Sequence record: PZ452594.1
Strand: one strand, 5' to 3'
Length of the DNA stretch: 64,000 nucleotides
Source of the DNA: a phage
Shown: piece after piece, positions 4,448 to 56,929 of the stretch
Layout of the letters: each line of letters opens with the position of its first letter
How positions within the stretch are numbered: position 1 is the first letter of the stretch
The notes under the pieces: generated by a model
What the model saw: the letters and a program-made list of their open reading frames with translations, nothing else
Databases searched by the model: none
What the model was told of the DNA's origin: nothing
Made by a program: the position numbers and the translations under genes

Positions 4448-4475
4448 TTTCTGTTCCTCCGTAGTTGATAGGGTA

Positions 4476-4505: not shown

Positions 4506-4754
4506 AACTTTTTTAAAAATATTCGTAATAAATGTGAATACCAATCACTACTGCCGAAACCTGTGCAACCCACCACGCACAAGCAATAAGTACAGAATTC
4601 AAAATTTTCATAATAACCTCATCACAAAAGTAAATGTTAAACAAATTACTGGAATACTAATTAACCAAACAAAACACCACCATAATGAACTCATAGTTCA
4701 ATCTCAGCGATTTTCATTTTATTCTCCAAATCTGTATCAGTAGTTGATAGTTGT

Positions 4755-4784
4755 ATAGTACCACGGTCCTTGTGGTATGTAAAC
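4755..4784 (-). promoter_or_regulatory. T4-type early promoter
   Basis: GTTTAC (rc 4779-4784), 18-nt spacer, TACTAT (rc 4755-4760); directly downstream of denB stop. Confidence 0.4.
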
Positions 4785-5357: not shown

Positions 5358-5420
5358 TTAAACTTTCCTTTATGTCGGAATCATAATTTCCCTTAAAACA
5401 AAAGGGCCGAAGCCCTTATT

Positions 5421-5615
5421 TTATTTGAATTGTGCAATTCTTTTTTCTAAACAATCTGCGTAAGATTTCATTGAGATGAACTGTGAAAGCAACAGTTCTT
5501 GCTCAACTGCACTAACCGTTAGAAACTTTGCGCTTTCTAAAAATTTGCTAAGTGCATTAATTTTGAGCATTAATTGATCGTATTCTTCTTTTACTCGTGC
5601 TTGATAACCTAACAT
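5421..5615 (-). CDS. hypothetical protein (64 aa) between rIIB and denB
   Basis: ORF track; flanked by CUUCGG hairpins at 5402-5417 and 5629-5646. Confidence 0.5.
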   Translation of the reverse strand: MLGYQARVKEEYDQLMLKINALSKFLESAKFLTVSAVEQELLLSQFISMKSYADCLEKRIAQFK

Positions 5616-5643
5616 AATTTTCCTTAGTTAAGGGCCGAAGCCC

Positions 5644-6582
5644 TTATTTAAATTGTTCAGTAACGTCTTCAACTACTTCGTATTGGCAGGTACGCATTTT
5701 AGCATCGTTGTAATCAATCGGAATTGATACTACATCACGCGGATGTACTTTAACTTTTACGACTCGGATGGTTGAACTGCCAAAGTGACGAATATAAGAT
5801 TTAGAACATACATGCAGACCACGAGAACAAGTTTGTGTATCATCGTCATTCACACGAGTACGTGGCATTTTAACTACTTTACCCGGACTGTTATCAAAGG
5901 TGTTTGAGTGACAGTCAAAGTAATTGCTGCGAACTACTTTCCAAGCATAGAAGTAACCATCTTCTGTAATTTCAATATCGTTTGCTACCAAGAAATCAAA
6001 GAGTCGAGATACTGCTTTTTGGCTCGGGTTTTCCAACAGATTTTCCAAGAACGGAAAATAAAATTCAAAGTTTTCGCCTTTTTCCATCGAATCGAGAATA
6101 CGATCAACTAAACCAGACCGCAATTCAATATTTTGATAGAACAAGCTTCCACCTTCAATTCGAACATCACCGGAAATATATTTTTCAACAGCGCGTCGAA
6201 CATTAATTTTTTGTGCAGCTTCTTCTAATTTATCTGCAACAAGCAGATTAAGAATTTCCTGGAAATTTGAATGAGTATTAGGGGTTGCGTTATAAGTTAC
6301 ACCATCAACAGTAATTGAAATGAATTTTTTAGATGCATTCCAAATAATGTCAGATTTAGCAACTGGAGCAATAACTGCATCGCTATTAACTTTAACTGTA
6401 ATATCACCGCTAATAGTAACTTTAGGGTGTTTAGCTTCTTCAGCATTTTTCAAAACACGACGGATTGTGTCAACCGATACACCTTGCCAATCAGCCAATT
6501 CCTGCTGAGTGTAATTACCACTTGAATACAGTTTAACAATTTCAGCTTGTTCGTTTTTGGTCAGGCATTTAATATTGTACAT
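5644..6582 (-). CDS. rIIB: rIIB rapid-lysis/membrane integrity protein (312 aa)
   Basis: MYNIKCLTKNEQAEIVKLYSSGNYTQQELADWQG... recognised as T4 rIIB; 312 aa. Confidence 0.93.
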   Translation of the reverse strand: MYNIKCLTKNEQAEIVKLYSSGNYTQQELADWQGVSVDTIRRVLKNAEEAKHPKVTISGDITVKVNSDAVIAPVAKSDIIWNASKKFISITVDGVTYNATPNTHSNFQEILNLLVADKLEEAAQKINVRRAVEKYISGDVRIEGGSLFYQNIELRSGLVDRILDSMEKGENFEFYFPFLENLLENPSQKAVSRLFDFLVANDIEITEDGYFYAWKVVRSNYFDCHSNTFDNSPGKVVKMPRTRVNDDDTQTCSRGLHVCSKSYIRHFGSSTIRVVKVKVHPRDVVSIPIDYNDAKMRTCQYEVVEDVTEQFK

Positions 6583-9010: not shown

Positions 9011-9040
9011 ATTATACCACATCCTTGTGGTAAAGTAAAC
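9011..9040 (-). promoter_or_regulatory. T4-type early promoter upstream of rIIA.1/rIIA
   Basis: GTTTAC (rc 9035-9040), 18-nt spacer, TATAAT (rc 9011-9016); overlaps gene 39 stop. Confidence 0.45.
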
Positions 9041-10860
9041 TACTGGCTCATCCATTCTTTGCGAAGGTCAGCATTATCTCCCATGAGCATTTCAAAAAGC
9101 TCTTTCCAGTTCTCAGGAAGTTTAACAACATCATATACTGGGTTTTGAATCATCTCACGATATTCAGATTTTTCTAAAGAGCCAAGTCCCTTAATATAAC
9201 GGATGCTATGTTTAGGTAGAGCATCTTTAGCACTCTCATATTCAGCGACTGTATAAAACCATTCTTGTTTTTTACCGACCTGAGCGATGATTACAGGAGT
9301 TTTGACAAAGCGAATTCTTCCTTGTTCAAACAGTTCTGGCCAATTACTAAAAAATCCGAGCAGAGAAGGATAAATGCTTCCTAGACCATCATGGTCAGCA
9401 TCAGTCATAATAGCAATATTATGATAATTCAAGTTTTCAGCTTTTTCACCGAGAACTAGACCAGTGATTGCGCAAATATCAAATAGTTCTTTGTTTTTAA
9501 GCATATCTGCATAAGACATACCCCAACTGTTGAGAACTTTACCACGTAATGGATAACCACCATGAAGTTCTTTATCACGAACATCAATAAGATATCCGAT
9601 AGCAGAATCACCCTCAGTCAAGAAAAGAGTAGTGTCAGCATCTTTACCACAAAGATTCGCTTTGATATGTTTATGAACCTTAGCTTTAGAAGCCTTTTTA
9701 GCTGCTTTAGTTTCTGCTGCTTTTTCTGCCGCCAATTTACGAGCCAAAGCAGCTTCGATAATCGGCATTAGAATTGCTTCATTATTTAGAATAGCACGTG
9801 AAATCTTTTTAGCATCAAGCTGAATATGACTACGGATTTCACCAAATGGAGAAGTCAAACGCTCTTTAGTTTGAGAATCAAATCGCATGTTTTTCATATC
9901 ACGAACAAACATAACGATAGTCAAACATTCTTTGACACGCGCTTTAGTCACATCAATTTTGAACTTACGTTTGATTTGTGGAATAAGGTCTTCACAAATA
10001 TCATCCATAACACAGTCAATGTGATGGCCACCATTCTTAGTGTGGATGTTATTCACATAAGTTAATTGACGAAATCCATCCGGTGAACGACCAACCGCAA
10101 TAGAACAATTTTCTTGTTCTTGAACGATAGCATGCTCATCATATTGGCGTGCATATTTCTTAAAATTGCCCTGAACCTTTTTACCATTAAAGGTAAATTG
10201 AATATCAGGATAAACAACAGCAAGTGTCTGGAGACGATCTAGTGTAATGTCAAGATAAACTTGGGACAGCTCATTAGTTTCAAATGACATAAAATCAGGA
10301 ATGAAAGTAACACGAGTTCCTTTCCATTTTCCTGGAATAGTTTCCCATGATTTATTTTCCATGCCATTTGAACAACGAACTACAATATTATTTTGACCAT
10401 CGCCAGTTTCACCGACAAACATCACAGAAAAAATGTTAGTTAAACTAGAACCAACACCATTCATACCACCGGTGACACGTTCTTTATCATCACCAAAGTT
10501 ACCACCCGCTTTTGGAATAGTCCAAGCAGCAACTGGACCAGGAATTTCTTCACCGGTAGGTGTTTTAACCATCGCTTGTGGAATACCACGACCGTTATCT
10601 TCAACTGTTACTTGATTGTTTTTGATGGTAACATTAATTTTATTCGCGAATTTAAACTTAGTACGAATACCTTCATCTACTGAGTTATCGATAATTTCAT
10701 CAATAAGCTTAACAAGACCAGGTACATACTGAACACTTTCCCATTTACCAAACAGAAAGCGCTCATGCATTTCATTAGCAGAAGAGCCAATGTACATGCC
10801 ACTACGCTTTTTGATATGTTCAATATCGCTCAGAATTTTAATTTCATTCTTAATCATCAC
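9040..10860 (-). CDS. 39: DNA topoisomerase II large (ATPase) subunit gp39, uninterrupted (606 aa)
   Basis: GHKL motif EDNGRGIP and TOPRIM LFLTEGDSA; one continuous ORF spanning what are genes 39 and 60 in T4. Confidence 0.92.
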   Translation of the reverse strand: MMIKNEIKILSDIEHIKKRSGMYIGSSANEMHERFLFGKWESVQYVPGLVKLIDEIIDNSVDEGIRTKFKFANKINVTIKNNQVTVEDNGRGIPQAMVKTPTGEEIPGPVAAWTIPKAGGNFGDDKERVTGGMNGVGSSLTNIFSVMFVGETGDGQNNIVVRCSNGMENKSWETIPGKWKGTRVTFIPDFMSFETNELSQVYLDITLDRLQTLAVVYPDIQFTFNGKKVQGNFKKYARQYDEHAIVQEQENCSIAVGRSPDGFRQLTYVNNIHTKNGGHHIDCVMDDICEDLIPQIKRKFKIDVTKARVKECLTIVMFVRDMKNMRFDSQTKERLTSPFGEIRSHIQLDAKKISRAILNNEAILMPIIEAALARKLAAEKAAETKAAKKASKAKVHKHIKANLCGKDADTTLFLTEGDSAIGYLIDVRDKELHGGYPLRGKVLNSWGMSYADMLKNKELFDICAITGLVLGEKAENLNYHNIAIMTDADHDGLGSIYPSLLGFFSNWPELFEQGRIRFVKTPVIIAQVGKKQEWFYTVAEYESAKDALPKHSIRYIKGLGSLEKSEYREMIQNPVYDVVKLPENWKELFEMLMGDNADLRKEWMSQ

Positions 10861-10884: not shown

Positions 10885-10909
10885 ATTATACTCCGGTAAT
10901 CATAAAGCT
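10885..10909 (-). promoter_or_regulatory. MotA-dependent middle promoter upstream of gene 39
   Basis: Minus sense aGCTTTA (MotA box), 12-nt spacer, TATAAT (rc 10885-10890); 25 nt upstream of gene 39 start. Confidence 0.45.
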
Positions 10910-10926
10910 AAAGGCCCGAAGGCCTT

Positions 10927-11187
10927 TTATTTAAAACGGATAGTCGAATCCTTGAAGAATAGACCAGAACACACGGTTCCTTCTACTTTCTGCCCAGTAG
11001 GTCCAATAGCACGAAATCCAGTATGCTGGAAATCATTTTCAGAGCAACCGAACCAGTTATATCCAGTGATTTCAATATTCGTAAAACCACTTGAAGATAA
11101 AACTTTGGTTGCATTATCAGCATCAGTACATCCTGCTAAAGACACTGCTAATACTAATGCTGCGATAGAACGATTAACATATTTCAT
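10927..11187 (-). CDS. predicted lipoprotein (~86 aa)
   Basis: Signal peptide with lipobox LAGC (MKYVNRSIAALVLAVSLAGCTDADN...); start moved to ATG. Confidence 0.55.
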   Translation of the reverse strand: MKYVNRSIAALVLAVSLAGCTDADNATKVLSSSGFTNIEITGYNWFGCSENDFQHTGFRAIGPTGQKVEGTVCSGLFFKDSTIRFK

Positions 11188-12413: not shown

Positions 12414-12675
12414 TGCGTTTCAGAAGAGTAGTAGCACCTTTGGCGAATTTTACATCATGAAAAACAGTTTCTTCTTCTGTAACAACTCGAACTTTAATAT
12501 TTTCACAATCCCAATTTTTACGAGCAATCTTCAAAAGCTGCAGTAAATCTTTACATTCAGCAATATCGATAACACATCCACGAGAATCTTCCATTATCGC
12601 ACGATAACCGTAAGCCATACCATAATCGTTGAAAGATTGCTCGATGATAATTAAGTTTTCCATTTTATTCTCCAA
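12394..12675 (-). CDS. hypothetical protein (93 aa)
   Basis: ORF track; preceded by SD GGAGAATAAA and by a 12-bp inverted repeat tcagtagttgat/atcaactactga (12689-12729). Confidence 0.45.
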   Translation of the reverse strand: MENKMENLIIIEQSFNDYGMAYGYRAIMEDSRGCVIDIAECKDLLQLLKIARKNWDCENIKVRVVTEEETVFHDVKFAKGATTLLKRIAPLFN

Positions 12676-12760
12676 GTTGTTTTCTGTATCAGTAGTTGAT
12701 ATTGATATAGTACCATAATCAACTACTGATGTATATAGTTTTATGAAAAAATTTTAAACT

Positions 12761-13252
12761 TTATGCATAGCGAGCTTTGCTATAGTGTTTAATCCAACTT
12801 TCAGGAATGACTTTGTATGTTCCTAAAAATACCGCGTTGTATAACTTAACGCCATCTTCTACCCATTGATCAGTAATGTATGCACACATGGCGCGAGTAC
12901 GGTTAACAACCCCTTCCTCACCTTCAGTAAATTCAAACTCATAAGGAGCAACGAACTTAATAGCTTGACCGAGTTTCCACTTAAAGTCTACGCCTACATG
13001 CGAAGTATCAATCGTTTCAATTCCTTTAGCGGGAACAGCTTTCAAAAACGCAGGCTCAAGAAATTTCCATCGAACATAACCAAACTGAGGTTTAGACATT
13101 CCATCTTTAGGAATGATACGCACTTTTACTTCAGAATCTTCATCTTTAACACCATGTTTAAGCTGAATGCTTACGACTTCAACCAATTTTCCTGCTGCCT
13201 TAGAACGGGATTTATCAGATACACGAGCAATTTCACCGATATTAATATTCAT
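12761..13252 (-). CDS. hypothetical protein (163 aa), paralogue of next gene (MotB-sized)
   Basis: Shares TDQWVEDGVKLYNAVFLGTYKVIPES with TDQWIEDGVELLNVVHAGEYSVVPRS of ORF 13326-13826. Confidence 0.5.
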   Translation of the reverse strand: MNINIGEIARVSDKSRSKAAGKLVEVVSIQLKHGVKDEDSEVKVRIIPKDGMSKPQFGYVRWKFLEPAFLKAVPAKGIETIDTSHVGVDFKWKLGQAIKFVAPYEFEFTEGEEGVVNRTRAMCAYITDQWVEDGVKLYNAVFLGTYKVIPESWIKHYSKARYA

Positions 13253-13296
13253 AATTATCTCTCACTTGTTAAAAAGATTTTATACTCCGCAGGACC

Positions 13297-13326
13297 ATTA
13301 TACTCTGGTCCCAAGAGTTTGTAAAC
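13297..13326 (-). promoter_or_regulatory. T4-type early promoter
   Basis: GTTTAC (rc 13321-13326), 18-nt spacer, TATAAT (rc 13297-13302). Confidence 0.45.
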
Positions 13327-21710: not shown

Positions 21711-21744
21711 TTTAAATGAAAAAAGGACTCCCGAAGGAGTCCTT
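21711..21744 (-). terminator. intrinsic terminator after soc
   Basis: Hairpin aaggactcc-cgaa-ggagtcctt (21723-21744; UUCG loop in RNA) followed by U-run (plus A-run 21717-21722). Confidence 0.6.
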
Positions 21745-22024: not shown

Positions 22025-22032
22025 TATTTATA
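22025..22032 (-). promoter_or_regulatory. late promoter (TATAAATA) for soc
   Basis: Minus sense TATAAATA (rc of tatttata 22025-22032) ~30 nt upstream of soc ATG; soc is a late gene in T4. Confidence 0.5.
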
Positions 22033-22077
22033 ATAAATTCTCGCGGCTTTTAAGTCGTCGTTTATTTAAACGAGCTA

Positions 22078-22596
22078 TTAATAGCCTCGGTCTTGACGAG
22101 CGAAATTTTCAGCATTTTTCAGATAATAAAGTTTAAATATTTCTTCAGCTGACATTCCAAGAGCAATAAATTTATTCATGAAAAAGTGAAATTGGTCAAT
22201 CAGTTCAAATTTAATTTCAAGCTGATCTTCAGGAGATAAGTCTTGAATTTTCTTGGATTGCATTTCAGAATAACGTTTCTTCCAAGGTTTCCATACGGCA
22301 GAAGCTTCTTTTTCACCATTACTCATACCACCAAGAGAAGTATATAGCTCGCGAGTTTCATCTGCGATATAATCGTCTTGGTTTCGCAACCAAGCAAGAA
22401 CTTCTCCTGCAGTTTCAAGTGAATCAGGATGACGATTTGTTTCTGGTTTATCATTAGCCAAACGAATCTGTAAATGCCGCTGCATATCAAGCATAACCTG
22501 CAGTGGGTCAATATTGTGCATAATATTCTCAGCATATGCACGATTTGCTTTATCAACACCTTCGATCAAATGAGCGCATTCATTAAAGTAAGCCAT
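22078..22596 (-). CDS. 56: dCTPase/dUTPase gp56 (~172 aa)
   Basis: MAYFNECAHLIEGVDKA... recognised as T4 gp56; track ORF 22078-22689 is an upstream non-ATG extension. Confidence 0.88.
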   Translation of the reverse strand: MAYFNECAHLIEGVDKANRAYAENIMHNIDPLQVMLDMQRHLQIRLANDKPETNRHPDSLETAGEVLAWLRNQDDYIADETRELYTSLGGMSNGEKEASAVWKPWKKRYSEMQSKKIQDLSPEDQLEIKFELIDQFHFFMNKFIALGMSAEEIFKLYYLKNAENFARQDRGY

Positions 22597-25084: not shown

Positions 25085-25226
25085 TGAAAGCTTTAACTAA
25101 TGCTTTATTAACTTCAGCATACTGAGTAGTAGCCCATTGAACGTCATCTTTCATCATTGTGGTTTCTTTAGTAAACATGCTTTCATTCTTAAACCACCCC
25201 ATAAAAACTACCTTTACCAATTCCAT
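25044..25226 (-). CDS. dmd: Dmd-like protein (60 aa)
   Basis: 60 aa, immediately downstream of gene 41 as for T4 61.5/dmd; MELVKVVFMGWFKNESMF... Confidence 0.6.
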   Translation of the reverse strand: MELVKVVFMGWFKNESMFTKETTMMKDDVQWATTQYAEVNKALVKAFIDDKKVCEVDCRG

Positions 25227-25255
25227 AACAATCTCCTCATTTAACCAACAAGACT

Positions 25256-25285
25256 ACTATACCATAGTCTCGTCAGCTTGTAAAC
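25256..25285 (-). promoter_or_regulatory. T4-type early promoter upstream of dmd
   Basis: GTTTAC (rc 25280-25285), 18-nt spacer, TATAGT (rc 25256-25261); overlaps gene 41 stop. Confidence 0.45.
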
Positions 25286-27066: not shown

Positions 27067-28240
27067 TAAATTCTTCCATATCACTTAGCTGATCTAGGTC
27101 AGTTTCTAAATCAGCTGCTGATTTACTTTTACTTTCTGAGGATTTAAATTTTTCAACTTTTGAGTTAATTAATTCATCAACTTCCGCTTCAACAATTTCA
27201 TTACTATCAATAGCACCTAACTGATAAGCACGCTTAATAGCATCACGGAATGGTTGATGCTTAAATAAAGGACCCCAGAATGTAGTGCAGTTGGTATCTT
27301 TTGCACGCCAAGATTTTTCTTCGCGAATCATCTCGCCGGTTTCTTCATCAAGAAATTCACGAGCATACCAACCATTCTTAGGTTTTACTACAAATCCTAA
27401 TTCTAGAGCCATATCTAACAATCCAGAATAAGGATCGATACCGCCGTCAAATTTAACATCAATAAAGAATTTACTTTTTTCTTTAACTGTACGAGATTTT
27501 TCTACATTTAGAACAAATTGATACCCCTGAAGATCAGAACCATCTTTAATCTGACGCTTACCGATAATGAATACAGTATCAGCCGAATACATTACACCTG
27601 TACCGCCTGTCATTACGGTTTTGCTAAACATTTCAATTGTTTCAATTGTATGGTTAACCGCAACACATGGAATATTTTTAATGCTAAAATAAGGAGTAAC
27701 AATACGGAATAATGACTTCAGTGATTTAGCACGAGTCATATCTGCCACAGATTTTTCATTCAAGGCATCTTCCGTTTCTTTCTTAGAAGCCATATTACCG
27801 ATTGAGTCGATGAATACAATAACTTTTTCACCGCGCTCAATAGCTTCAAGCTGATTCACCATATCAATTTTCAGCTGTTCAACTGACTGAATTGGCGTAT
27901 GAATTACTCGTTCCGGGTCAACTCCCATGGATCGCAAATAAGCTGGAGTAATACCAAATTCGCTATCATAGAATAGACAAACCGCGTCAGGATATTTGTT
28001 CAAATACGCCGCAACCATAGTCAAAGACATATTTGATTTAAAGTGTTTAGAAGGCCCTGCGAAAATAGTTAAACCAGACTGCATACCGCCATCAATCGCA
28101 CCAGAAATAGCGATATTAAGCATTGGGATTTTTGTACGGATTACATCCTTTTCATTAAAGAATTTAGATGTAGTCAGTTCAGCAGTCATTTTAGAAGTGG
28201 AAGCTTTAATCAAACGGGATTTTAAATCTGCAATAGACAT
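27059..28240 (-). CDS. uvsX: UvsX recombinase (393 aa)
   Basis: RecA-family P-loop GPSKHFKS; MSIADLKSRLIKASTSKMTAELTTSKFFNEK... recognised as UvsX; acidic C-terminus. Confidence 0.93.
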   Translation of the reverse strand: MSIADLKSRLIKASTSKMTAELTTSKFFNEKDVIRTKIPMLNIAISGAIDGGMQSGLTIFAGPSKHFKSNMSLTMVAAYLNKYPDAVCLFYDSEFGITPAYLRSMGVDPERVIHTPIQSVEQLKIDMVNQLEAIERGEKVIVFIDSIGNMASKKETEDALNEKSVADMTRAKSLKSLFRIVTPYFSIKNIPCVAVNHTIETIEMFSKTVMTGGTGVMYSADTVFIIGKRQIKDGSDLQGYQFVLNVEKSRTVKEKSKFFIDVKFDGGIDPYSGLLDMALELGFVVKPKNGWYAREFLDEETGEMIREEKSWRAKDTNCTTFWGPLFKHQPFRDAIKRAYQLGAIDSNEIVEAEVDELINSKVEKFKSSESKSKSAADLETDLDQLSDMEEFNE

Positions 28241-28317
28241 TCATTTTTTCCATAGGCATCATTATATTTTCCTCACTGGTTAAAGATAGAGTAATTATAA
28301 CACAATAAATTTAGGCA

Positions 28318-29160
28318 TTAATCAACTGCTATTGGATGAATAGCATTAAACTTATGAAATGCTTCTGATTTTTCTTTACGCGAAACACACATGCGAAGAA
28401 CCTTTAATGGCTCATCTTCTTCACCCAACGATTTTCGTTTTTCAATATTAGAAGTTTTCCAACGAGCTTGCTCTGGAAACTCTCTGTTGATTTGCTCAAG
28501 CGCTCTATTATGTTTAGAATTACTACGAATTGAACTGCACCCGCCAGGAGCTTGTGCTTTTCCAGATACAACCAGATATTTGAACAAGGCCAAATGCGGA
28601 TAACCTTGATTAATTAAATTGAGAAATGCATACATATCTTCGCACAAATCAATTTTTCCATACCCAATTTGTTCTGTCGTAAGTTTTCCAAGGTCATACC
28701 ATGTATTCGTGAATCCATATGAATTTTCACGATAATTACCCCAAGATGAAGTAATTTTAAAAATTGGTAGACGAGCATGGCCATGATAATACCCACAATC
28801 CATGGCATCCTCAACATATTGAATCAATTCATAGAACTGTTCACGGGTTAATTGATTGACTTTATCTACACAGCGACGATCATCTCTTTTTCGCATTGAG
28901 CTCATACGAATCGTAGTATCATCGTCAATCATCCAGATTCGTTGACCTGCATACATATCAGTAATTGCTTTACGAGTACCGGCAATTCCATTTACGTCAT
29001 CAGGAATAGTTATAATTTTAGCTCTAGACCCATAGGCATCATAATAAGCTTTTTCTTCATGTTCACGCACTACAATATGGGGTTCATAATCAGTCGGAAA
29101 CATATCAAGGGCAGAAACTGCCCCGACACGCTGATAACTTGGAATTACGAATTGAATCAT
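28318..29160 (-). CDS. GT-A fold (DxD) glycosyltransferase in the beta-gt slot (~280 aa)
   Basis: N-terminal VIPSYQR and DxD motif WMIDDDTT; lies between uvsX and 42; not T4 beta-gt (351 aa); start moved to ATG, ATGA overlap with gene 42 stop. Confidence 0.6.
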   Translation of the reverse strand: MIQFVIPSYQRVGAVSALDMFPTDYEPHIVVREHEEKAYYDAYGSRAKIITIPDDVNGIAGTRKAITDMYAGQRIWMIDDDTTIRMSSMRKRDDRRCVDKVNQLTREQFYELIQYVEDAMDCGYYHGHARLPIFKITSSWGNYRENSYGFTNTWYDLGKLTTEQIGYGKIDLCEDMYAFLNLINQGYPHLALFKYLVVSGKAQAPGGCSSIRSNSKHNRALEQINREFPEQARWKTSNIEKRKSLGEEDEPLKVLRMCVSRKEKSEAFHKFNAIHPIAVD

Positions 29161-29897
29161 TTCCACTCACCTTTATAGTCTTTTTTCACAATATGAGTTT
29201 CGCCAGTATTCCACCAATGATCAACCAAGTAAAAATGACGAGAATATACATGAAGACTTCCAACATTCCATATAATAGAACCTGCTTTATACTGACGAGT
29301 TGAATCGCCGGCATTCAAATCAGATACTAATTTATCTAATACGTATTTTTGCCATGCATAATCATTACGGAATCCGAAGACCACGTCATTTGAGCGCATG
29401 TTAACAACCGCATTGACTTTCTTATCACGAATCAGGTACTGTACTGTATTAGTACACATGAAATCTGACATACCATCTTTATTGTAGTCAAATTGCATGG
29501 ATGGACGAGTATAAATCATGATACCACGTCGAGAATCAGGATTTTGACCAAGTTCAGCTAAACACATATCATATTGAGCATAGTTATCTTCTGACCAGAT
29601 AGCCCAACCATAATTCGAGTTAATTTCACCTTTAGAAGATGCTACTTGTTGCCAAATCTTCGGTGTTTCACCCGGAATATCTTTAACGAACAAGCTCTTA
29701 GATTTATACCATTCAAGTTCACGCTGAATGTATTCATCATTAAGAGCGCCAAAAATAAACGGTTCATCTGCTATAAATGATGCGCCAATAATTTCAATAG
29801 TTTTAACGCCAGTTTTATCAACTACGAAATCTTTTTCCTTTAATGCAAGACCCAAATGAAGACGGATTTCTTCAACTGTCATAGAGTCACTAATCAT
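29157..29897 (-). CDS. 42: dCMP hydroxymethylase gp42 (246 aa)
   Basis: MISDSMTVEEIRLHLGLALKEKDFVVDKTG... recognised as T4 gp42; 246 aa. Confidence 0.93.
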   Translation of the reverse strand: MISDSMTVEEIRLHLGLALKEKDFVVDKTGVKTIEIIGASFIADEPFIFGALNDEYIQRELEWYKSKSLFVKDIPGETPKIWQQVASSKGEINSNYGWAIWSEDNYAQYDMCLAELGQNPDSRRGIMIYTRPSMQFDYNKDGMSDFMCTNTVQYLIRDKKVNAVVNMRSNDVVFGFRNDYAWQKYVLDKLVSDLNAGDSTRQYKAGSIIWNVGSLHVYSRHFYLVDHWWNTGETHIVKKDYKGEWK

Positions 29898-30309: not shown

Positions 30310-30690
30310 TCACTTAGTCAAATTTTTTACGCATGAATTATAAGAATTCACTACATACTCCATCGGAGCATTTTTACCGGTACGCCATTGGTAATTATTA
30401 GCCCAATTTGCCCAAAGCTCGGCGCAGTAGTTTTCAATTTTTTCTTCGCGTGTAATTACATCCGAATTACGATATGCTTGAGCAGATTCATCTGGACGAA
30501 TAGCTTCGTCAAAATTCGCCTGCATTTGTTCTACTGTTTGCTTTGGAGCTTCTTTATAACACTTGACATTAGGATTATAAAATTTGCTTGAACAGTTTAC
30601 AATTTTTCCTACATCAGACTGATTTACTACCGGTTCTTGAGCTACACAACCAGTAAGACCTAATGCAATAACCAAAATAGCGATTTTCAT
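30310..30690 (-). CDS. predicted lipoprotein (126 aa), imm.1-like position
   Basis: Signal peptide with lipobox LTGC (MKIAILVIALGLTGCVAQ). Confidence 0.55.
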   Translation of the reverse strand: MKIAILVIALGLTGCVAQEPVVNQSDVGKIVNCSSKFYNPNVKCYKEAPKQTVEQMQANFDEAIRPDESAQAYRNSDVITREEKIENYCAELWANWANNYQWRTGKNAPMEYVVNSYNSCVKNLTK

Positions 30691-30702: not shown

Positions 30703-30954
30703 TTAAAACTTAACAAATAACTTTAAAGCATCTTCAATTTTAATTCCTTTTCTTACACCCATAACAGAAATTGGCTGTGACTGAAATTTTCCTTTACCAT
30801 TATAAATTTCTAATCCAGTCACCATTCCATTTTGTTCTATAATACCGTAAGTGTTACCTTCATTTTCAAATTCTTTAACTTTAAAGAGTTTATTAGCTTT
30901 TTCTGCGTTAACAACTTTTAAATTTTGAATAAAATTAGTTTGAATATTTTTCAT
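30703..30954 (-). CDS. hypothetical protein (83 aa)
   Basis: ORF track; SD GGAGGAACA upstream; downstream of early promoter cassette. Confidence 0.5.
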   Translation of the reverse strand: MKNIQTNFIQNLKVVNAEKANKLFKVKEFENEGNTYGIIEQNGMVTGLEIYNGKGKFQSQPISVMGVRKGIKIEDALKLFVKF

Positions 30955-30982
30955 TTTGTGTTCCTCCGTAGTTGATAGTTGT

Positions 30983-31012
30983 ATAGTACCACAGAGGAAC
31001 AGTCTTGTAAAC
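30983..31012 (-). promoter_or_regulatory. T4-type early promoter (cassette copy)
   Basis: GTTTAC (rc 31007-31012), 18-nt spacer, TACTAT (rc 30983-30988); 52-bp block identical to 56878-56929. Confidence 0.5.
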
Positions 31013-31087
31013 AGTTTTGTGAAAATTTTTTAGGGAATTCTAAAGGTCCAGAATCATCTGTTTTTCATAAGTATAGATTTATATTAC

Positions 31088-31115
31088 TTGTATGAAAAAG
31101 GGACCCGGAGGTCCC
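31088..31115 (-). terminator. intrinsic terminator after gene 43
   Basis: Hairpin gggacc-cgga-ggtccc (31100-31115) followed by U-run (plus A-run 31095-31099). Confidence 0.55.
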
Positions 31116-31128
31116 TAGATTTATTCTA

Positions 31129-36047: not shown

Positions 36048-36098
36048 AATTTCCTCATTCAAGTTTTAGTGTAAATTATAAAGGGCCGAAGCCCTCTA

Positions 36099-36785
36099 TT
36101 AAAAATCGTGGGTAGAATCAGCTTCAAGAGCTACTACATAATTCGCGTGTTCACCTTCAAATTTAGCAGCACCTTGTTTACCTTTTGCCCAGAGCAGAAG
36201 TTTATAATTTCCTGGTTGCATTTTCATATTTGCCATATTGATAATGAAATTAAATGTATTTTCACCATCATAATCACCAAGAGTCAAAGAATATTTAACA
36301 CGGGTCAAAGCAGAATCTTCCACTTTATTAAAACCGTTAATTACGATTTTACCTTCTTTTACTGTGATAGCAATTGTATCAATCTGCAGACCGCGAGATA
36401 CACGCAACAGCTGCTGAAGGTCTTCAGCTTTAATTTCAGTAACAACAGATGCTACCGGGAATGGAATTGGTTTATTAGGAGCAACTACTGTACTCGGATC
36501 GGCTGCTGGCCAAAAAATTGTTGAACGAGCATCAGCAATTTTAATATTTCCATCTTCTGACTGGGAAATTTCTGCATCATCATTAACTAGGGACAGAATA
36601 CCGAGAAAACCGTTCAAATCGTAAATCGCTACATCAAAATCAATAGTGTCAGAAATATTTGCTTCTGCATAAGTTGTACCATTAACTGCGCGAGTCATAA
36701 TAAATTGACCGGATTTAAGCATAATACCAGAGTTAATAGTAGCGAAATTTTTAAGCAGAGCAGTAGTATCTTTAGACAGTTTCAT
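36099..36785 (-). CDS. 45: sliding clamp gp45 (228 aa)
   Basis: MKLSKDTTALLKNFATINSGIMLKSGQFIMTRAVNGTTYAEANIS... recognised as T4 gp45. Confidence 0.93.
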   Translation of the reverse strand: MKLSKDTTALLKNFATINSGIMLKSGQFIMTRAVNGTTYAEANISDTIDFDVAIYDLNGFLGILSLVNDDAEISQSEDGNIKIADARSTIFWPAADPSTVVAPNKPIPFPVASVVTEIKAEDLQQLLRVSRGLQIDTIAITVKEGKIVINGFNKVEDSALTRVKYSLTLGDYDGENTFNFIINMANMKMQPGNYKLLLWAKGKQGAAKFEGEHANYVVALEADSTHDF

Positions 36786-41634: not shown

Positions 41635-41659
41635 ATTATATCAAACTCCGTATAAAGCT
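41635..41659 (-). promoter_or_regulatory. MotA-dependent middle promoter upstream of gene 47
   Basis: Minus sense aGCTTTA (MotA box), 12-nt spacer, TATAAT (rc 41635-41640); adjacent to CUUCGG hairpin 41660-41677. Confidence 0.45.
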
Positions 41660-41675
41660 AAAGGGCCGAAGCCCT

Positions 41676-42878
41676 TTATTTTGTAATAATGTCAAACTGT
41701 TCTTTAAAGCAGAAGCTTGAATCTTGATGCTGATACAAAAATTCATACGCTTTTTCTCGCTCACGGTCATAAAGAGCTCGGTCAGATGACAGTTCTTTAA
41801 TACGCTCGAATGTTGATTCCATATCATTTTCATCAAACCAAATGATACCGCTATCATGCGAGGTCAAAGGAGTATTATCAACACGGAATTTTAAATTTTC
41901 GCCAGTAGATTTCCAAAATACCGGAATTGTTCCACATGCACCAAGCTCGAGATGAGTATATTCTAAAGAACGTTGTAGATATTTTTTATCCAACTTACTC
42001 AACTGATAACCAAATCCGGATTTACTCATGCGTTCAAGCATTTCGCTATTTACATAACGGTCAAGAATTTGCGTTGGCAAATTAGGAGCAATTTTAATTT
42101 GGTCTACTTGATGAAGACGATAATATTCATATGGAATTCCCTTTTCTTTAATAGGAATGAACGCTGGAGAACGTTCCAGACCTTCCATAATAGTACTTAG
42201 TCCTGCAGGTTTAAGATGTTTTTCGTGAAAATCAAACATCTGATAAAAACCTTTCCATGTAGTCGTACGACCAATCCAACGGTTAACATTCATGTTAATT
42301 TCAGAAACATCTTTCCAGTATGTTGATCGAACCTTCGCAATATCCATAGGAGGCTGAAAGTTGTATACGGTCGGTGCTTCTTCAATATCATCAAACAGAG
42401 AAACTGTTTCTGGATACCATTCTTTCATCAGAACTTTATTAAAATCGCCATTATCAGAATGACTAAAAATAACATCAGCTCGACGAACAGTTTCTTCTAA
42501 TCCCAAATTTCGGCGCAAAGAAAGAGAAGAATGGTCATGTTGATAAACTACAACACGAACCGAAGGTTTAATGTTATCAATAATTTTTTTATAGTTATTA
42601 ATAGTGTCTTCTTCAACCGAAGTAGCAGGAACTGAATTGATAATTAGAATATCACAATCATTTACCAGCTTAAGTGTTTTATCGTATTCTTTTGCCAATA
42701 AAACCGGAATTGAAAATGATTTATAATCATGCGCGCAATTACGAGTAAATGATTTATCTTTAGCATAAACCAAAGTTACTTCATGACCATTTTTAATAAA
42801 CCAATCACGTTGCTCAAGAGAAAATTTAGTTACACCGCAACCTTCAAGACCTCGAGCCATAAAAATACATACTTTCAT
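41676..42878 (-). CDS. agt: DNA alpha-glucosyltransferase (400 aa)
   Basis: MKVCIFMARGLEGCGVTKFSLEQRDWFIKNGHEVTLVYAKDKSF... recognised as T4 alpha-gt; 400 aa. Confidence 0.92.
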   Translation of the reverse strand: MKVCIFMARGLEGCGVTKFSLEQRDWFIKNGHEVTLVYAKDKSFTRNCAHDYKSFSIPVLLAKEYDKTLKLVNDCDILIINSVPATSVEEDTINNYKKIIDNIKPSVRVVVYQHDHSSLSLRRNLGLEETVRRADVIFSHSDNGDFNKVLMKEWYPETVSLFDDIEEAPTVYNFQPPMDIAKVRSTYWKDVSEINMNVNRWIGRTTTWKGFYQMFDFHEKHLKPAGLSTIMEGLERSPAFIPIKEKGIPYEYYRLHQVDQIKIAPNLPTQILDRYVNSEMLERMSKSGFGYQLSKLDKKYLQRSLEYTHLELGACGTIPVFWKSTGENLKFRVDNTPLTSHDSGIIWFDENDMESTFERIKELSSDRALYDREREKAYEFLYQHQDSSFCFKEQFDIITK

Positions 42879-42944
42879 TTAATATCCTCTTTGTTTTGGT
42901 TTATTTTACCAAAAATTTATAAAGCAATATAGGAGCCGAAGCTC

Positions 42945-45261: not shown

Positions 45262-45313
45262 ACATTATCCTCAATTACGTTAAAATTTTATTATCCAAAA
45301 AGGGCCGAAGCCC

Positions 45314-45514
45314 TTAGCTAAACTTTTTGGCACCCTTCCAGCCTTCATACATCATTGCGGCTGATATTAATATTGCTCCTGAGCAACTTGAATATTTGTG
45401 ATTCCAAAACCAGTTTAGAAAAACTTCATCATCAATACCTTGAGCTATCATATTTTCAAAGAACTGACGACGAGCTTCGGCAATTCGCTGCGATAATTTA
45501 GATTCAGGATTCAT
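45314..45514 (-). CDS. hypothetical protein (66 aa)
   Basis: ORF track. Confidence 0.45.
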   Translation of the reverse strand: MNPESKLSQRIAEARRQFFENMIAQGIDDEVFLNWFWNHKYSSCSGAILISAAMMYEGWKGAKKFS

Positions 45515-46918: not shown

Positions 46919-47389
46919 TTAATCATGTTTCCACACCCCATCGGTATTTGACCAAAGTCGCTGATTATCTGATCCTCGCCACAGCTTTTTAGTCGGAAGA
47001 TTTTTCTCATACTTCCCATCAATAATAACATCAACATATTTAAGCATTTCTAGTTGTTTAATATCTTCAAATTTATATCCTGTCCACAACCAAATGCTTT
47101 TATTGGGATAAAGATTTTTTACTGTTTGAACCACAGAGTGAATCACGTCTCTGTTATCAGGATAAAGAGGGTCACCTCCGGTTATAGTTAATCCTTCTAT
47201 ATAATCATTATTCAAACATTCAATCAATTGTTCTAGTGTTTCACCAGTAAATGGAATACCATTTCTAGCATTCCATGTTGATTTATTATAACACCCTTCG
47301 CATTTATGCAAACAACCTGTAACGAAAAGAACGACCCTGCAACCAGGGCCATTAACAAAATCGCAAGGATAAAATCTATCATAATTCAT
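46919..47389 (-). CDS. nrdG: anaerobic ribonucleotide reductase activating protein NrdG (156 aa)
   Basis: Radical-SAM CxxxCxxC (CLHKCEGC); ATGA overlap with nrdD. Confidence 0.9.
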   Translation of the reverse strand: MNYDRFYPCDFVNGPGCRVVLFVTGCLHKCEGCYNKSTWNARNGIPFTGETLEQLIECLNNDYIEGLTITGGDPLYPDNRDVIHSVVQTVKNLYPNKSIWLWTGYKFEDIKQLEMLKYVDVIIDGKYEKNLPTKKLWRGSDNQRLWSNTDGVWKHD

Positions 47390-49203
47390 TGGTGTTTAAC
47401 CCTATGCATGATTTCTTTATTTTTACCGAGATTAAATCCGCGTTCGTTTGGATTTCCCAAATAACCACATGTTCTTCTTATGGTGTTCATCTTTTTAGGA
47501 TCAGTTTCTCCACAAATAGAACAAACAAATCCGTTTTCAGTAGGAGTCATTTCATGGGTACTTCCACATGTAAAACATTTATCTACTGGCATATTAACAC
47601 CAAAATAATCTAAATGTTGTGCAGCATAATCCCATACGGCCTCAAGACCTTTTAAGTTATTTTTCATATCAGGAAGTTCAACATAAGAAATGTGACCACC
47701 TGTCGCAATGAAATGATATGACGCTTCACGAGAAATCTTTTCAAACGGAGTAATATTTTCTTCTACTGAAACATGGAAACTGTTAGTGTACCAGCCTTTA
47801 TCGGTAACATCTTTTACACTTCCATATTTTTCTGTATCAAGTTTACAGAAGCGATAACAAAGGTTTTCAGCAGGAGTCGAATATAAACTAAAAGCAAATC
47901 CAGTTCTTTCAGTCCACTGTTTAAGATGAGCATTCATTTTAGTTAAAATTTCTCGTCCAATATCACGACCGACAAGAATATTCAATTCGTGAATACCAAT
48001 GTATCCTAAAGACACTGAACTTCTACCGTTTTTAAATAACTCAATTATGTCGTCATCAGGTTTAAGACGAACCCCGAATGCACCTTCTTGGTAAAGAATA
48101 GGAGCAACAGTAGCTTTAACTCCTTTTAAGGAACTAATTCTACACATCAATGCTTCAAAACATAAATCCATTCGTTCATTAAATAGCTCAACAAATTTTT
48201 GTTCATTGAATTGTGTTCCAATATAAGAATCTAACGCGATGCGAGGAAGATTCAGTGTTACAACACCAAGATTATTACGTCCATCAAGAATTTCATTACC
48301 AGTCGAATCTTTCCATACGCTCAAGAAACTACGGCAACCCATTGGAGAAACAGGAACAGATGAACCAGTGATAGCTTTATTGTTCTTAGCTGAAATAATA
48401 TCAGGATACATCCTTTTGCTTGCACACTCTAGAGCAAGCTGCTTAATATCATAGTTCGGATCGTCTTTGTAAAGATTAACGCCTTCTTCGACGAACATAA
48501 CAAGCTTAGGAAAAATAGGAGTTATCCCATCACGACCGAGACCTTTAATACGATTTTTCAGAATTGCTTTCTGAATCATTCGTTCAGTCCAGTCAGTTCC
48601 CGTACCAAATGTAATTGTTACAAAAGGTGTTTGCCCGTTTGAACTAAAGAGAGTATTTACTTCATATTCATAAGCTTGGAATGCATCGTATACGTCTTTT
48701 TCTGTTTTAGATTGAGCATAATTCAACGCATCAGCGATTTGCCATTTTTCTGCATCCTCAATATGTTTTGCATAGGTGCGTTTAACATAAGGAGAAAGTA
48801 CTTTATCTACATTAGCAAAAGTCGTTCCGCCATATTGATGGGAAGCAACTTGCGCAGTAATTTGTGCCATAATTGCAGTAGCAACGCCAATTGATTTAGG
48901 AGTTTCAATCTGTGCATTACCAAGCTTAAATCCGTTCTCAAGCATTCCTTTTAAATCTACTAAACAGCAATTAGTAAATGGAAGAGCAGGGGAATAATCA
49001 ATATCATGGAAATGGATAATTCCGCTTTCATGCGCTTTCATAATAAAAGACGGGACCATATTTTTGGCAATGTGTTTAGACACAATACCAGCCATAAGGT
49101 CCCGTTGAGTTGGAAAAACACGAGAATCTTTATTAGCATTCTCGTTTAAAAGGTCTTTATTAGTTTTATGAATCAATCCTTCAATTTCTTTTTCAATTGT
49201 CAT
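47386..49203 (-). CDS. nrdD: anaerobic ribonucleoside-triphosphate reductase NrdD, intron-less (605 aa)
   Basis: Glycyl-radical motif RRTCGYLG and C-terminal zinc ribbon CFTCGS...CSICG in one continuous ORF. Confidence 0.93.
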   Translation of the reverse strand: MTIEKEIEGLIHKTNKDLLNENANKDSRVFPTQRDLMAGIVSKHIAKNMVPSFIMKAHESGIIHFHDIDYSPALPFTNCCLVDLKGMLENGFKLGNAQIETPKSIGVATAIMAQITAQVASHQYGGTTFANVDKVLSPYVKRTYAKHIEDAEKWQIADALNYAQSKTEKDVYDAFQAYEYEVNTLFSSNGQTPFVTITFGTGTDWTERMIQKAILKNRIKGLGRDGITPIFPKLVMFVEEGVNLYKDDPNYDIKQLALECASKRMYPDIISAKNNKAITGSSVPVSPMGCRSFLSVWKDSTGNEILDGRNNLGVVTLNLPRIALDSYIGTQFNEQKFVELFNERMDLCFEALMCRISSLKGVKATVAPILYQEGAFGVRLKPDDDIIELFKNGRSSVSLGYIGIHELNILVGRDIGREILTKMNAHLKQWTERTGFAFSLYSTPAENLCYRFCKLDTEKYGSVKDVTDKGWYTNSFHVSVEENITPFEKISREASYHFIATGGHISYVELPDMKNNLKGLEAVWDYAAQHLDYFGVNMPVDKCFTCGSTHEMTPTENGFVCSICGETDPKKMNTIRRTCGYLGNPNERGFNLGKNKEIMHRVKHQ

Positions 49204-54986: not shown

Positions 54987-55895
54987 TTAAGATTTAAGTA
55001 AATCAACAATTTTAATTAATTTTTCACGTTCAGATTTAGCTTTACTACTCAGTCCAGATAGTCTGAAAATTTCATCGTCATATTGTTGAATAGAAATATT
55101 CAGCTCTTCAATTTGCTTATTAAAATAATCAATTTGTTCAGAATGTTTTTCGTTACTACGAACTGGTACAGGTTTTGTAGGAAATTTAGTTAAACTGGAT
55201 TCATCCGGGCGATAAATTAAAATGCAATTTGAACCAATCGGGCATTTAGCACCAGATGAATATTCTAACGTTCCAGCTTCTTTTAAAACTTCAAAAGCTA
55301 AACAGAGATGATGCCCCATATTAACATAATCTGTAGAGCGAGCTCTGATATAATAATCATCGCCGCGAATACTAAATTTAAAGCATTTAAGGTCTTCTGT
55401 ATTATTGGTCTTAAAAATCATTTGTTTATCTAGACCTTTAGCTAATCGAGCGCCTAATGCTAATAATCGTCGTTGATTTTCCCACAAATCCGCAATCATT
55501 TGATCGAATGACAATTTCGGCATTAGTCTACCATAAAGGTCATATCCTTTATTATAATTGCGAAGAATTTCACTCGCGTTAATACGAGACAACGCTCCAA
55601 TTTTATTAAGGGCTTTCATGATGCGATTAGATAAACCCATTCCAGACCCGTTTGTTCGCTGTAAATGTTTTTCTAATCCAAATCCAATATCAACTTTAAA
55701 CTTATCTAAAATTTCTGCATGAACATCTCTGTCAATAACATTCAAATCCAAAGTTGGGTTAAATCTATGAAAAAATTTATCTGGCTCTCCACGACGAAGT
55801 ACAGTCCATTCATTCAATTTTTTATTAACTAAAGATTTAATTACTGCATTGACATTATTAATTACTACTGACATATTTTCCTCACTCAATTTCAA
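54987..55895 (-). CDS. hypothetical protein (302 aa) with C-terminal coiled coil
   Basis: ORF track; C-terminal ...QIEELNISIQQYDDEIFRLSGLSSKAKSEREKLIKIVDLLKS. Confidence 0.55.
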   Translation of the reverse strand: MKLSEENMSVVINNVNAVIKSLVNKKLNEWTVLRRGEPDKFFHRFNPTLDLNVIDRDVHAEILDKFKVDIGFGLEKHLQRTNGSGMGLSNRIMKALNKIGALSRINASEILRNYNKGYDLYGRLMPKLSFDQMIADLWENQRRLLALGARLAKGLDKQMIFKTNNTEDLKCFKFSIRGDDYYIRARSTDYVNMGHHLCLAFEVLKEAGTLEYSSGAKCPIGSNCILIYRPDESSLTKFPTKPVPVRSNEKHSEQIDYFNKQIEELNISIQQYDDEIFRLSGLSSKAKSEREKLIKIVDLLKS

Positions 55896-56344: not shown

Positions 56345-56872
56345 TTATGCGAGTACCGTCTTTAACCGTTCTTCAAACTTCCGAAGAGTATTCTGGCGTT
56401 CAGCTCTTTGCTTTTTGTAAGTTTCAATACGCTCTGAAATGAGAGTGTATCGTTCATTTACTGATTCTTTCATAAAATCAGGAATTTCACGAGAAGCTTT
56501 AATCTCGTCAAATTTATCAATAACAGCTTGCTCTTCAGCAATTAAGTTATCATACATCAAAATATCTTTCTTGATGAACTCAATATCTTCTTGAGTTACA
56601 CGAGATAATTTAGATGCTTTATCCTTTTTGTACTGTTCGTTAGTATCACGAGACCAGTGTAATGTACGATTTTTATTCGTATTCTTATAAATTTCTACAA
56701 TACCAATCTCATCAATAATAACGATCCAATTCCAACGGGATTTGTAAATTTGTCCTCCATCAACAGTGATTTCACCTCCGATTGAGATGTCATTAAAGAA
56801 CTTGCTTTGTGCTTCAGATTTAAATTTACCATCATTGTAGTTTACCAAGTTGAAAATATCTTTAGCATTCAT
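56345..56872 (-). CDS. hypothetical protein (~175 aa), coiled-coil C-terminus
   Basis: Track ORF 56345-56932; start moved to ATG (MNAKDIFNLV...) downstream of promoter cassette, SD GGAGGAACA. Confidence 0.5.
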   Translation of the reverse strand: MNAKDIFNLVNYNDGKFKSEAQSKFFNDISIGGEITVDGGQIYKSRWNWIVIIDEIGIVEIYKNTNKNRTLHWSRDTNEQYKKDKASKLSRVTQEDIEFIKKDILMYDNLIAEEQAVIDKFDEIKASREIPDFMKESVNERYTLISERIETYKKQRAERQNTLRKFEERLKTVLA

Positions 56873-56899
56873 TTTTGTTCCTCCGTAGTTGATAGTTGT

Positions 56900-56929
56900 A
56901 TAGTACCACAGAGGAACAGTCTTGTAAAC
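56900..56929 (-). promoter_or_regulatory. T4-type early promoter (cassette copy)
   Basis: GTTTAC (rc 56924-56929), 18-nt spacer, TACTAT (rc 56900-56905); 52-bp block identical to 30961-31012. Confidence 0.5.

Follow-up and report, generated by a model that had tools for sequence, protein, structure and literature searches.

An identical early-promoter and leader cassette at two loci of a T2/RB51-like phage genome, probably copied between loci by recombination

A 54-bp repeat precedes two unrelated small genes in the 64-kb window of phage DNA considered here (the window being the whole stretch analysed), and it is very probably a T4-type early promoter with its short 5' leader that has been copied, as a recombining cassette, between loci in gene-poor, plastic parts of the genome. 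The copies would owe their identity to homologous recombination or gene conversion between paralogous regulatory cassettes, with the conserved -35, -10/ITS, and leader patches mediating the exchange, and not to any demand of promoter function. The phenomenon is real and has already been described (T4 early promoters; promoter-early stem-loop or PeSL cassettes, Arbiol et al. 2010, Comeau et al. 2014), and the interpretation is supported rather than new. The residual novelty is a hairpin enclosing the SD that, we infer, is gated by the early promoter.

The repeat, its relatives, and their genomic setting

The 52-mer that the initial annotation reported as identical at two places has exactly two exact matches in the whole 64-kb window (30961-31012 and 56878-56929), compared with none in 100 shuffles, and the true extent of the exact identity is 54 bp. 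Copy 1 occupies 30959-31012 and copy 2 occupies 56876-56929, both on the minus strand; since this is the functional strand, the sequence originally given is the reverse complement of the promoter. An 18-nt core (GATAGTTGTATAGTACCA) is present without mismatch at 1330, 4746, 30974, 56891, and 58592, with one mismatch at 62349, and with three at 12698, for a total of seven matches versus 0.05 expected. All five of the related copies proposed earlier are recovered with this core at three mismatches or fewer, but the earlier list was incomplete: it missed the closest diverged relative of the repeat (46/52 identical, found at 4436-4523 in a repeat search of the window) and ~13 more cassettes with this type of promoter, again on the minus strand. 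The closest relative, a third copy at 4445-4505, forms the promoter and leader of a 37-aa ndd.4-like ORF. The other diverged copies, likewise on the minus strand, are P-motA (1297-1368; leader ..CAACTACTGATACAG..GGAG), a cassette in the ndd.6 position (4717-4784) whose leader and first four codons (ATGAAAATCGCT) are those of T4 imm.1, a cassette with the -35 element ATATACA (12663-12736) whose spacer TCAGTAGTTGAT is complementary to its leader ATCAACTACTGA (hairpin of -20.2 kcal/mol), the orthologue of T4 P-nrdC.10 (58562-58630), and a cassette reading GTTTACT...TGATACTAT ACAACTATC that is preceded by a terminator hairpin (62329-62387).

The window has a G+C content of 34%, carries every substantial ORF on the minus strand, and is the early region of a T2/RB51-like Tequatrovirus; around the three closest copies, its sequence matches T-even phages (RB51, RB68, T2, and others) at 97-98% identity, with 97.5-98% for RB51, RB68, and T2. 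As annotated in these relatives, the neighbours of copy 1 are gene 43 (DNA polymerase), imm.1, imm, and gene 42, those of copy 2 are nrdC.7 to nrdC.10, and those of the third copy are rIIB, denB, and ndd. All three cassette-bearing regions (43/imm.1, nrdC.x, and denB-ndd) are hyperplastic. Copy 1 lies 5' of, and would drive, an 83-aa accessory ORF (30703-30954, minus strand), a homologue of RB51ncORF048c that is absent from T4 and is called ORF048c below; imm.1 (30310-30690, minus strand) is the second gene behind this promoter, and its T4-type leader is replaced by GAGGAAATTATT. In T4, the orthologous promoter directly precedes imm.1, without ORF048c. Copy 2 is the putative promoter and leader of nrdC.8 (175 aa; 56345-56872, minus strand, with the ATG at 56872), which has no sequence relation to ORF048c. 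Pfam searches returned no family for ORF048c, nrdC.8, the ndd.4-like ORF, or an inserted 66-aa ORF discussed below, Rfam returned no family anywhere in the window, and a literature search on nrdC.8, ndd.4, imm.1, and early-promoter inverted repeats yielded nothing useful.

Anatomy of a probable early promoter

Read on the minus strand, the repeat consists of a -35 element GTTTACA, a 17-nt spacer (AGACTGTTCCTCTGTGG) ending in TGg, a -10 element TACTAT, ACAACTATCAACTAC, and GGAGGAACA; its leader has ACAACTATCAACTAC and then the SD GGAGG, and the repeat ends 5-6 nt from the ATG. In copy 1 (all elements on the minus strand), the -35 element lies at 31006-31012, the spacer at 30989-31005, the TGg and -10 element together at 30983-30991 (with the -10 element at 30983-30988), and the SD at 30963-30967; the predicted +1 falls at ~30976 on the basis of the -10 position. 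The -35 element of copy 2 lies at 56923-56929 (minus strand). A generic sigma-70 promoter scan calls both copies as TTTACA-17-TACTAT with a TG extension before the second hexamer. Across the window, a pattern describing this architecture matches 25 times on the minus strand versus once on the plus strand, and ~20 of the matches are intergenic and directly 5' of ORFs (e.g., P-motA, P-rIIA.1, P-srd, P-modB, P-sp, P-dmd, P-nrdC.4, and P-nrdC.10).

Upstream of the -35 element, copy 1 has an A/T-rich UP-like element (CCCTAAAAAATTTTCACAAAACT; 31013-31040, minus strand) that is common to P-motA, the cassettes at 4784, 12736, 46182, and 58630, and T4 P-imm.1. At the UP position itself, copy 1 carries the family-typical AAAAAATTTTCACAAAACT, and in copy 2 the last part of the nrdC.9 reading frame (GAAAGAAGTTTCTTTTAGTG) stands there, without the motif. 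The -35 element of copy 2 begins only 2 nt past the nrdC.9 stop codon, and copy 2 therefore has neither an UP element of its own nor a terminator ahead of it. Between gene 43 and copy 1 lies an intrinsic-terminator-like hairpin (AGGGACCTCCGGGTCCCT followed by TTTTT; 31099-31116, minus strand).

These features are those of T4 early promoters, which combine GTTTAC at -36 to -31 with an UP region rich in A, a TGn, a -10 element, and "additional regions of consensus" (PMC1524935, PMC2988021). The orthologous promoters of T4, at 27080 (imm.1), 53943 (nrdC.8), and 166807 (ndd.4), share with the window's copies their loci, strand, GTTTACA, 17-nt spacing, TGn, TACTAT, ACAACTATCAAC leader, and GGAG SD, along with the UP-like tract seen at copy 1. 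With this architecture directly 5' of an SD and ATG in a T-even early region, and with orthologous T4 promoters at the same loci, the designation of the repeat as an early-promoter cassette is well founded, and its activity as a promoter is what we infer from that resemblance. The cassette promoter would be fired by the host sigma-70 RNA polymerase immediately after infection, producing a leader of ~22 nt. The small early genes that it precedes, nrdC.8 and, downstream of gene 43, the accessory ORF048c, are unrelated.

Exchange of modules between loci

None of the three T4 orthologues is identical to another. In T4, the promoters of imm.1 and nrdC.8 differ at four spacer positions and in their leaders (...ACTAC|TGATACGGATTTGGAGAAT versus ...ACTAC|GGAGGAACA), and only a single nucleotide in 54 separates T4 P-nrdC.8 from the window cassette. 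An exact-string scan of IMG/VR with the upstream region and spacer of copy 1 retrieved one contig only; a pattern anchored on the invariant bases, with the arms left free, matched at 8 viral and 13 metagenome loci. The anchored pattern yielded 24 further family members from viral and metagenome contigs, and when these are sorted by their flanking sequences the modules are seen to be mosaic. The ndd.4 locus, for example, carries either its own TACC-ITS module or a complete nrdC.8-type module (retrieved loci L013 and L023), and the near-identical pair on contig OBRH01000009 consists of nrdC.8 and ndd.4 cassettes whose sole difference is CAC versus CAG just before AAAATG. The leader type found at 12736 stands behind a family-B promoter in another retrieved locus (L018), versus a different -35 element and spacer in the window.

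Reassortment is most complete at the 43/imm.1 locus. Denoting the spacer types S1 and S2 and the leader types L1 and L2, T4 has S1 with L1, retrieved locus L017 has S2 with L1 (an nrdC.8-type spacer and an imm.1-type leader), RB51 has S1 with L2 (an imm.1-type spacer and the hairpin leader, together with ORF048c), and the window has S2 with L2, as does T2, whose cassette at this locus is the same as the window's. The occurrence of all four spacer and leader combinations at one locus requires recombination within the ~25-bp conserved -10/ITS core. Additionally, copy 1 shares 63 exact nucleotides (GTTTACA...AAAATGAA) with nrdC.8 cassettes of other phages, which exceeds its match to the window's own nrdC.8 cassette, where a 1-nt deletion intervenes. 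In this lineage, an nrdC.8-type module would have replaced the T4-type module at 43/imm.1, together with the insertion of ORF048c.

The exchange could also be the work of an autonomous mobile element, with a dedicated site-specific recombinase or nuclease recognising the stem-loop, as Arbiol et al. speculated. Junctions do fall at the same short motifs (CTATCAA and ACTAC), mini-circles have been reported for RB49/phi1 (PMC2839356), and homing endonuclease genes are plentiful in these T4 regions. However, no recombinase is associated with the cassettes, the arm sequences differ among cassette families, and the exchange tracts end in any available conserved patch, as expected of T4 general recombination, which needs <50 bp (cited in PMC2839356); a dedicated element is accordingly judged improbable.

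Identity above the promoter consensus

Selection for promoter strength alone might have driven the copies to the same optimum without any exchange between loci. The consensus of T4 early promoters is unusually long (PMC2988021), high conservation is normal for them ("uber UP/-35/TGn/-10"; PMC2988021), and over 20 cassettes of the window the -35 element, the -10 element, and part of the ITS are 80-100% conserved. When the 52 nt from the -35 element onward are compared for these 20 cassettes (190 pairs), the median pairwise identity is 26/52, and 27.9 is expected from the column frequencies; copy 1 and copy 2 share 52/52 with each other, and each shares 46/52 with the 4505 copy. The spacer is unconserved in the family (median 6/17 among the 20 cassettes), yet it is identical in the pair (17/17). 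The initial annotation had allowed that the copies might prove no more similar than the promoter consensus alone would make them, and by these figures their similarity lies well above it. Convergence also fits poorly with the four-gamete pattern, with orthologous cassettes that differ at the same locus between phages and match across loci, and with T4's own two orthologues not being identical, and it is very improbable as an explanation of the pair.

An ancient segmental duplication of a gene with its promoter, making ORF048c and nrdC.8 paralogues, is close to impossible and was rejected: both copies do stand directly before small ORFs of unknown function, but BLASTP of the ORF048c protein against the nrdC.8 protein gives no alignment, and with unrelated proteins downstream and a DNA identity that stops at the upstream edge of the -35 element and just before the ATG (5-6 nt from it), the repeat is purely regulatory.

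Accessory ORFs at the junctions

Compared with T4, the ORF048c insertion has its left junction exactly after ATCAACTAC and its right junction at the imm.1 SD; a cassette flanks it on one side only, which argues against the plain integration of a mini-circle. Among Tequatrovirus records, just 31 contain ORF048c, in every case at the 43/imm.1 locus, and a homologue with 55% amino-acid identity occurs in 7 Dhakavirus records. In IME08, the homologue belongs to the tk-rI-mobD-nrdC.11 hyperplastic region and follows a terminator and an early promoter of its own. At nrdC.10, T4 has one promoter, versus the order P58630, leader, 66-aa ORF, P58361, and nrdC.10 in the window. The 58630 cassette would drive the inserted 66-aa ORF (58362-58562, minus strand), beyond which a second promoter cassette (GTATACA-N17-TATAGT; 58304-58361, minus strand), with an 11-12 bp hairpin around its -10 element, would now drive nrdC.10; both junctions of the insertion lie at the leader motif CTATCAA. 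The suggestion in the initial annotation that the repeat could drive recombination or represent a mobile promoter/leader module thus gains support from the reshuffling of modules across phages, the four-gamete locus, the accessory ORF, and this cassette-bounded insertion.

The association should not be overstated. Over the whole window, ~21 indel or replacement events separate the sequence from T4, and junctions lie inside cassettes in only 3 of them, which is not clearly above the expectation from the intergenic position of the cassettes alone. Approximately 7 of the ~21 events are T4 homing-endonuclease or intron insertions (mobA/gene 60, segF, segA, mobB, mobC, I-TevII, and mobD). The cassettes are one contributor among several to the differences between the window and T4, and Comeau et al. 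conclude likewise (PMC4122927).

A predicted hairpin joining spacer and leader

In the three family-B copies, the spacer (UGUUCCUCYGURGU in the RNA) is complementary to the leader ACUACGGAGGAACA. The 5' arm of the resulting hairpin in copy 1 (30988-31001, minus strand; equivalent to 56905-56918 in copy 2) falls within the spacer of the promoter, ahead of the predicted +1, and the 3' arm (ACUACGGAGGAACA; 30959-30972, minus strand; equivalent to 56876-56889 in copy 2) contains the SD. RNA that starts upstream of the -35 element is predicted to form a 14-bp stem that closes a 15-nt loop (-20.5 kcal/mol, z = -5.4), and the 4505 copy, with a perfect 14-15 bp inverted repeat of spacer and leader (TGTTCCTCCGTAGT / ACTACGGAGGAACA), gives -25.7 kcal/mol. 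RNA from the cassette's own promoter, beginning at the predicted +1 (AUCAAC...), is unstructured in the same predictions (-0.3 kcal/mol). The predicted pairing probability of the SD at 31012, 56929, and 4505 is 1.00 in read-through RNA versus 0.14-0.20 in own-promoter RNA. Read-through RNA would thus fold into a 14-bp hairpin that buries the GGAGG, own-promoter RNA would lack the 5' arm and stay open, and translation of the downstream ORF would thereby depend on its own early promoter. Read-through into nrdC.8 is to be expected, since nrdC.9 ends 2 nt before the -35 element of copy 2. Whether the hairpin acts as such a translational gate is, on these folding models, about evenly balanced.

P-motB.2 (14405) and P-modB (19606) repeat this geometry with arms of unrelated sequence. 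Equally strong hairpins around the -10 element that do not include the SD are found at 61575, 58361, 25285, 13326, and 12736, and such hairpins make up about half of those at the window's promoters. This last group agrees better with another function, in which the inverted repeat around the -10 element serves as an attenuator or terminator, or as a stabiliser of the 3' end of the upstream mRNA, and has no translational role. Arbiol et al. read such stem-loops as terminators or attenuators and not as translational devices, and one RB49 PeSL stem-loop cut lacZ expression as strongly as rrnB T1 (PMC2839356). Against this, the stem in the 54-bp cassette is followed by CAAAAUGAAAAA, with no U tract, its 3' arm is the SD itself, fully paired in the predicted structure, and T4 provides a precedent for SD-sequestering hairpins with an internal promoter (PMC3014915); a role in attenuation or 3'-end stabilisation is a serious candidate, if a rather doubtful one.

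The palindrome might alternatively be a DNA operator at which a dimeric phage or host repressor shuts off early promoters, given that it straddles the -10 element and that the shut-off of these promoters is not fully understood (PMC3014915). But the geometry is kept while the arm sequences are unrelated between promoter families, and the pairing relies on G.U pairs that work only in RNA of the transcribed strand. The mRNA strand folds more stably than its complement in 23 of 25 distinct hairpin variants, with 55 versus 9 G.U pairs, and the mean ddG over nine independent hairpin families is -7.0 kcal/mol, compared with composition-matched backgrounds of -1.5 (all windows) and -2.9 (strongly folding windows; P = 0.004). 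Folding that is specific to one strand favours structure in the RNA over an operator or cruciform in the DNA; the operator, rejected on this asymmetry, is barely tenable.

Variation within the family-B hairpin includes five one-sided G.U variants and no two-sided covariation, and the shuffle control was uninformative. Some relatives leave four pairs of the stem unpaired, the cases being the terminal pair, the nrdC.8 copy of T2, and the two copies of RB51. The proposition that all substitutions keep the pairing is weakened by A.C and C.U mismatches in the RB51 and T2 copies. In the T2 nrdC.8 copy, GGAG is changed to GGAT as well.

Early promoters and possible translational gating

The closest precedent comes from T4 itself: at e, soc, 49, and I-TevI, long transcripts hide the SD, and a shorter RNA from a promoter inside or over the 5' arm exposes it (PMC3014915). 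The cassette resembles them in the predicted pairing of the SD with an upstream arm in the long RNA and in the putative absence of the 5' arm from the RNA of its own promoter. However, their promoters are late ones (gp55, TATAAATA) that delay translation, whereas the cassette's is of the early sigma-70 type; its mode of action may thus be theirs with the timing reversed, but it falls outside their class. An early internal promoter would confine translation to the immediate-early burst.

The endoribonuclease RegB offers a second point of comparison. The consensus of a strong RegB/S1 cleavage site, GG*AGRAYARAA in an unpaired translation-initiation region, is found in early-gene SDs, and base pairing protects against RegB (PMC3014915). 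All cassette leaders contain GGAG, and GGAGAATAAAA at 4784, 12736, and 58361 matches the consensus in full; by contrast, the leader of the 54-bp cassette (GGAGGAACACA) matches at only 8 of 11 positions and would be paired in read-through RNA.

It is possible, though this is put forward tentatively, that a subset of T-even early promoters constitutes an "own-promoter-only" translation gate, comprising at least 5 of the 20 in the window (P-ORF048c, P-nrdC.8, P-ndd.4, P-motB.2, and P-modB). The 5' arm would lie in the non-transcribed spacer or the -10 region and the 3' arm would be the SD, polycistronic read-through RNA would go untranslated at that cistron, its GGAG being protected from RegB, and translation would proceed only from RNA of the proximal early promoter. 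No description of such a gate at early promoters was found in the literature examined. If the proposal is true, the gate would mirror those that late promoters provide at e, soc, 49, and I-TevI, and it would explain why the "neutral" spacer and the SD leader are inherited together as one cassette.

Relation to PeSL cassettes and significance

In the PeSL model, composite early-promoter/stem-loop cassettes in hyperplastic regions act as homology patches for the insertion, deletion, and exchange of small ORFs (PMC2839356, PMC4122927). PeSL mini-circles were shown for RB49/phi1 (PMC2839356), and the model has also been applied to T4 and PST, with the exchange at ndd.4/.5 among its examples and TTTACW-N17-TAYWAT as the T4/PST consensus (PMC2839356, PMC4122927). 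From its sequence, the cassette described here appears to be a shuffling cassette of the PeSL type and agrees with the PeSL definition in every feature that the sequence allows to be judged. It combines an AT-rich tract, a sigma-70-like promoter that fits the T4/PST consensus, a stem-loop, and an SD with ATG, and it adjoins accessory ORFs in hyperplastic regions and sits at indel junctions between close relatives. It differs in the placement of the stem-loop, which is drawn upstream of the promoter for PST/T4 and which in the window spans the -10 element and the SD, as in some RB49 subclasses. A broader likeness exists to integron gene cassettes and lambdoid "morons", in which small ORFs also travel with or beside their own expression signals; the cassette, however, lacks an integrase and attC, and its exchange apparently proceeds by general homologous recombination through the promoter sequence.

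The hairpin geometry, if its gating function is real, would offer a simple way to tell which early genes have their expression limited to the first minutes after infection. As a whole, the findings mainly confirm established biology in a T2/RB51-like genome, and the single 64-kb window illustrates how accessory genes are remodelled in T4-like phages: near-identical promoter/leader cassettes would serve as portable homology patches, through which small ORFs may be swapped in and out while their expression is kept correct.

Hairpins associated with early promoters and intergenic regions

Two families of UUCG-type hairpins recur in the window. The first, with the mRNA-strand form GGAGxCC-TTCG-GGxCTCC followed by a T run, comprises three terminator-like hairpins, each lying directly upstream of an early promoter (21713-21739 at promoter 21708, 58650-58676 at promoter 58630, and 62391-62417 at promoter 62387). 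This arrangement is the form of the promoter-early stem-loop (PeSL) as drawn for PST and T4, in which the stem-loop sits just upstream of the promoter. The second family, GGGCC-GAAG-GCCC(TT), is intergenic and present in six copies (5400-5421, 5628-5649, 10909-10930, 36079-36100, 41659-41680, and 45298-45319); its mRNA-strand form, GGGC-UUCG-GCCC, is capped by a C(UUCG)G tetraloop, and T-rich sequence usually lies on its 3' side. These six hairpins are probably terminators or mRNA stabilisers. GGGC/GCCC motifs were also carried by T4 deletion endpoints (Arbiol et al., PMC2839356).

Other predicted hairpins lie around the -10 itself. Amongst those examined, the largest strand asymmetry was observed at P-dmd (25226-25285; strand ddG -12.7 kcal/mol) and at 61517-61575 (-11.4 kcal/mol), both of which make heavy use of G.U pairs (five and three, respectively) and leave the SD outside the stem. 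The cassette at 13252-13326 and one on contig ULRM01008302 (mRNA-strand index ~3238) have the -35 and spacer start (GTTTACAAACTCTTGGGA) in common, and their -10 hairpins differ by two fully compensatory pairs (GGGACCA...TGGTCC versus GGGAGTA...TACTCCC); the comparison is one of related cassettes, not of established orthologues. In the T2 nrdC.8 leader (LC348380.1, locus position ~26303; ACGGATGAACA), GGAG is changed to GGAT, creating a C.U mismatch in the promoter hairpin, a change predicted to weaken the SD and the hairpin alike. The Dhakavirus homologue of the accessory ORF048c, orf92 of IME08 (NC_014260, locus positions 3395-3480), has an annotated start at an ATA within the promoter -10 region. 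The true start is likely the ATG 16 nt downstream, at which there is no obvious SD.

Differences from T4 and apparent exchange of promoter cassettes

The topoisomerase large subunit is encoded by one 606-aa ORF (9040-10860), the '60plus39' form of RB51 and T2. T4 2793-3911, which holds the T4-specific gene 60/mobA insertion and the region of translational bypass, is missing. Comparison of the window with T4 also revealed none of the homing-endonuclease genes segF, segA, mobB, mobC, and mobD, no nrdD intron with I-TevII, and a T2-type glucosyltransferase gene in place of b-gt, with breakpoints near 22032-22078, 28228-29175, 42869-42894, 47369-47389, 48665-48668, and 59696-60659.

The 4784 promoter cassette (4691-4784) was compared with those at T4 167086 and T4 27080. 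Its leader and first four codons (ATGAAAATCGCT, MKIA) are those of T4 imm.1, and the ORF behind it reaches a stop after 8 codons (ATGAAAATCGCTGAGATTGAACTATGA); first codons can apparently travel with an exchanged cassette. Relative to T4 55320-55384, the region 58304-58630 contains an insertion of a 66-aa ORF (58362-58562) and a second promoter, located between the T4-type nrdC.10 promoter and nrdC.10, with CTATCAA forming the junction on both sides. The resulting order is the promoter-ORF-promoter topology predicted by the mini-circle integration model.
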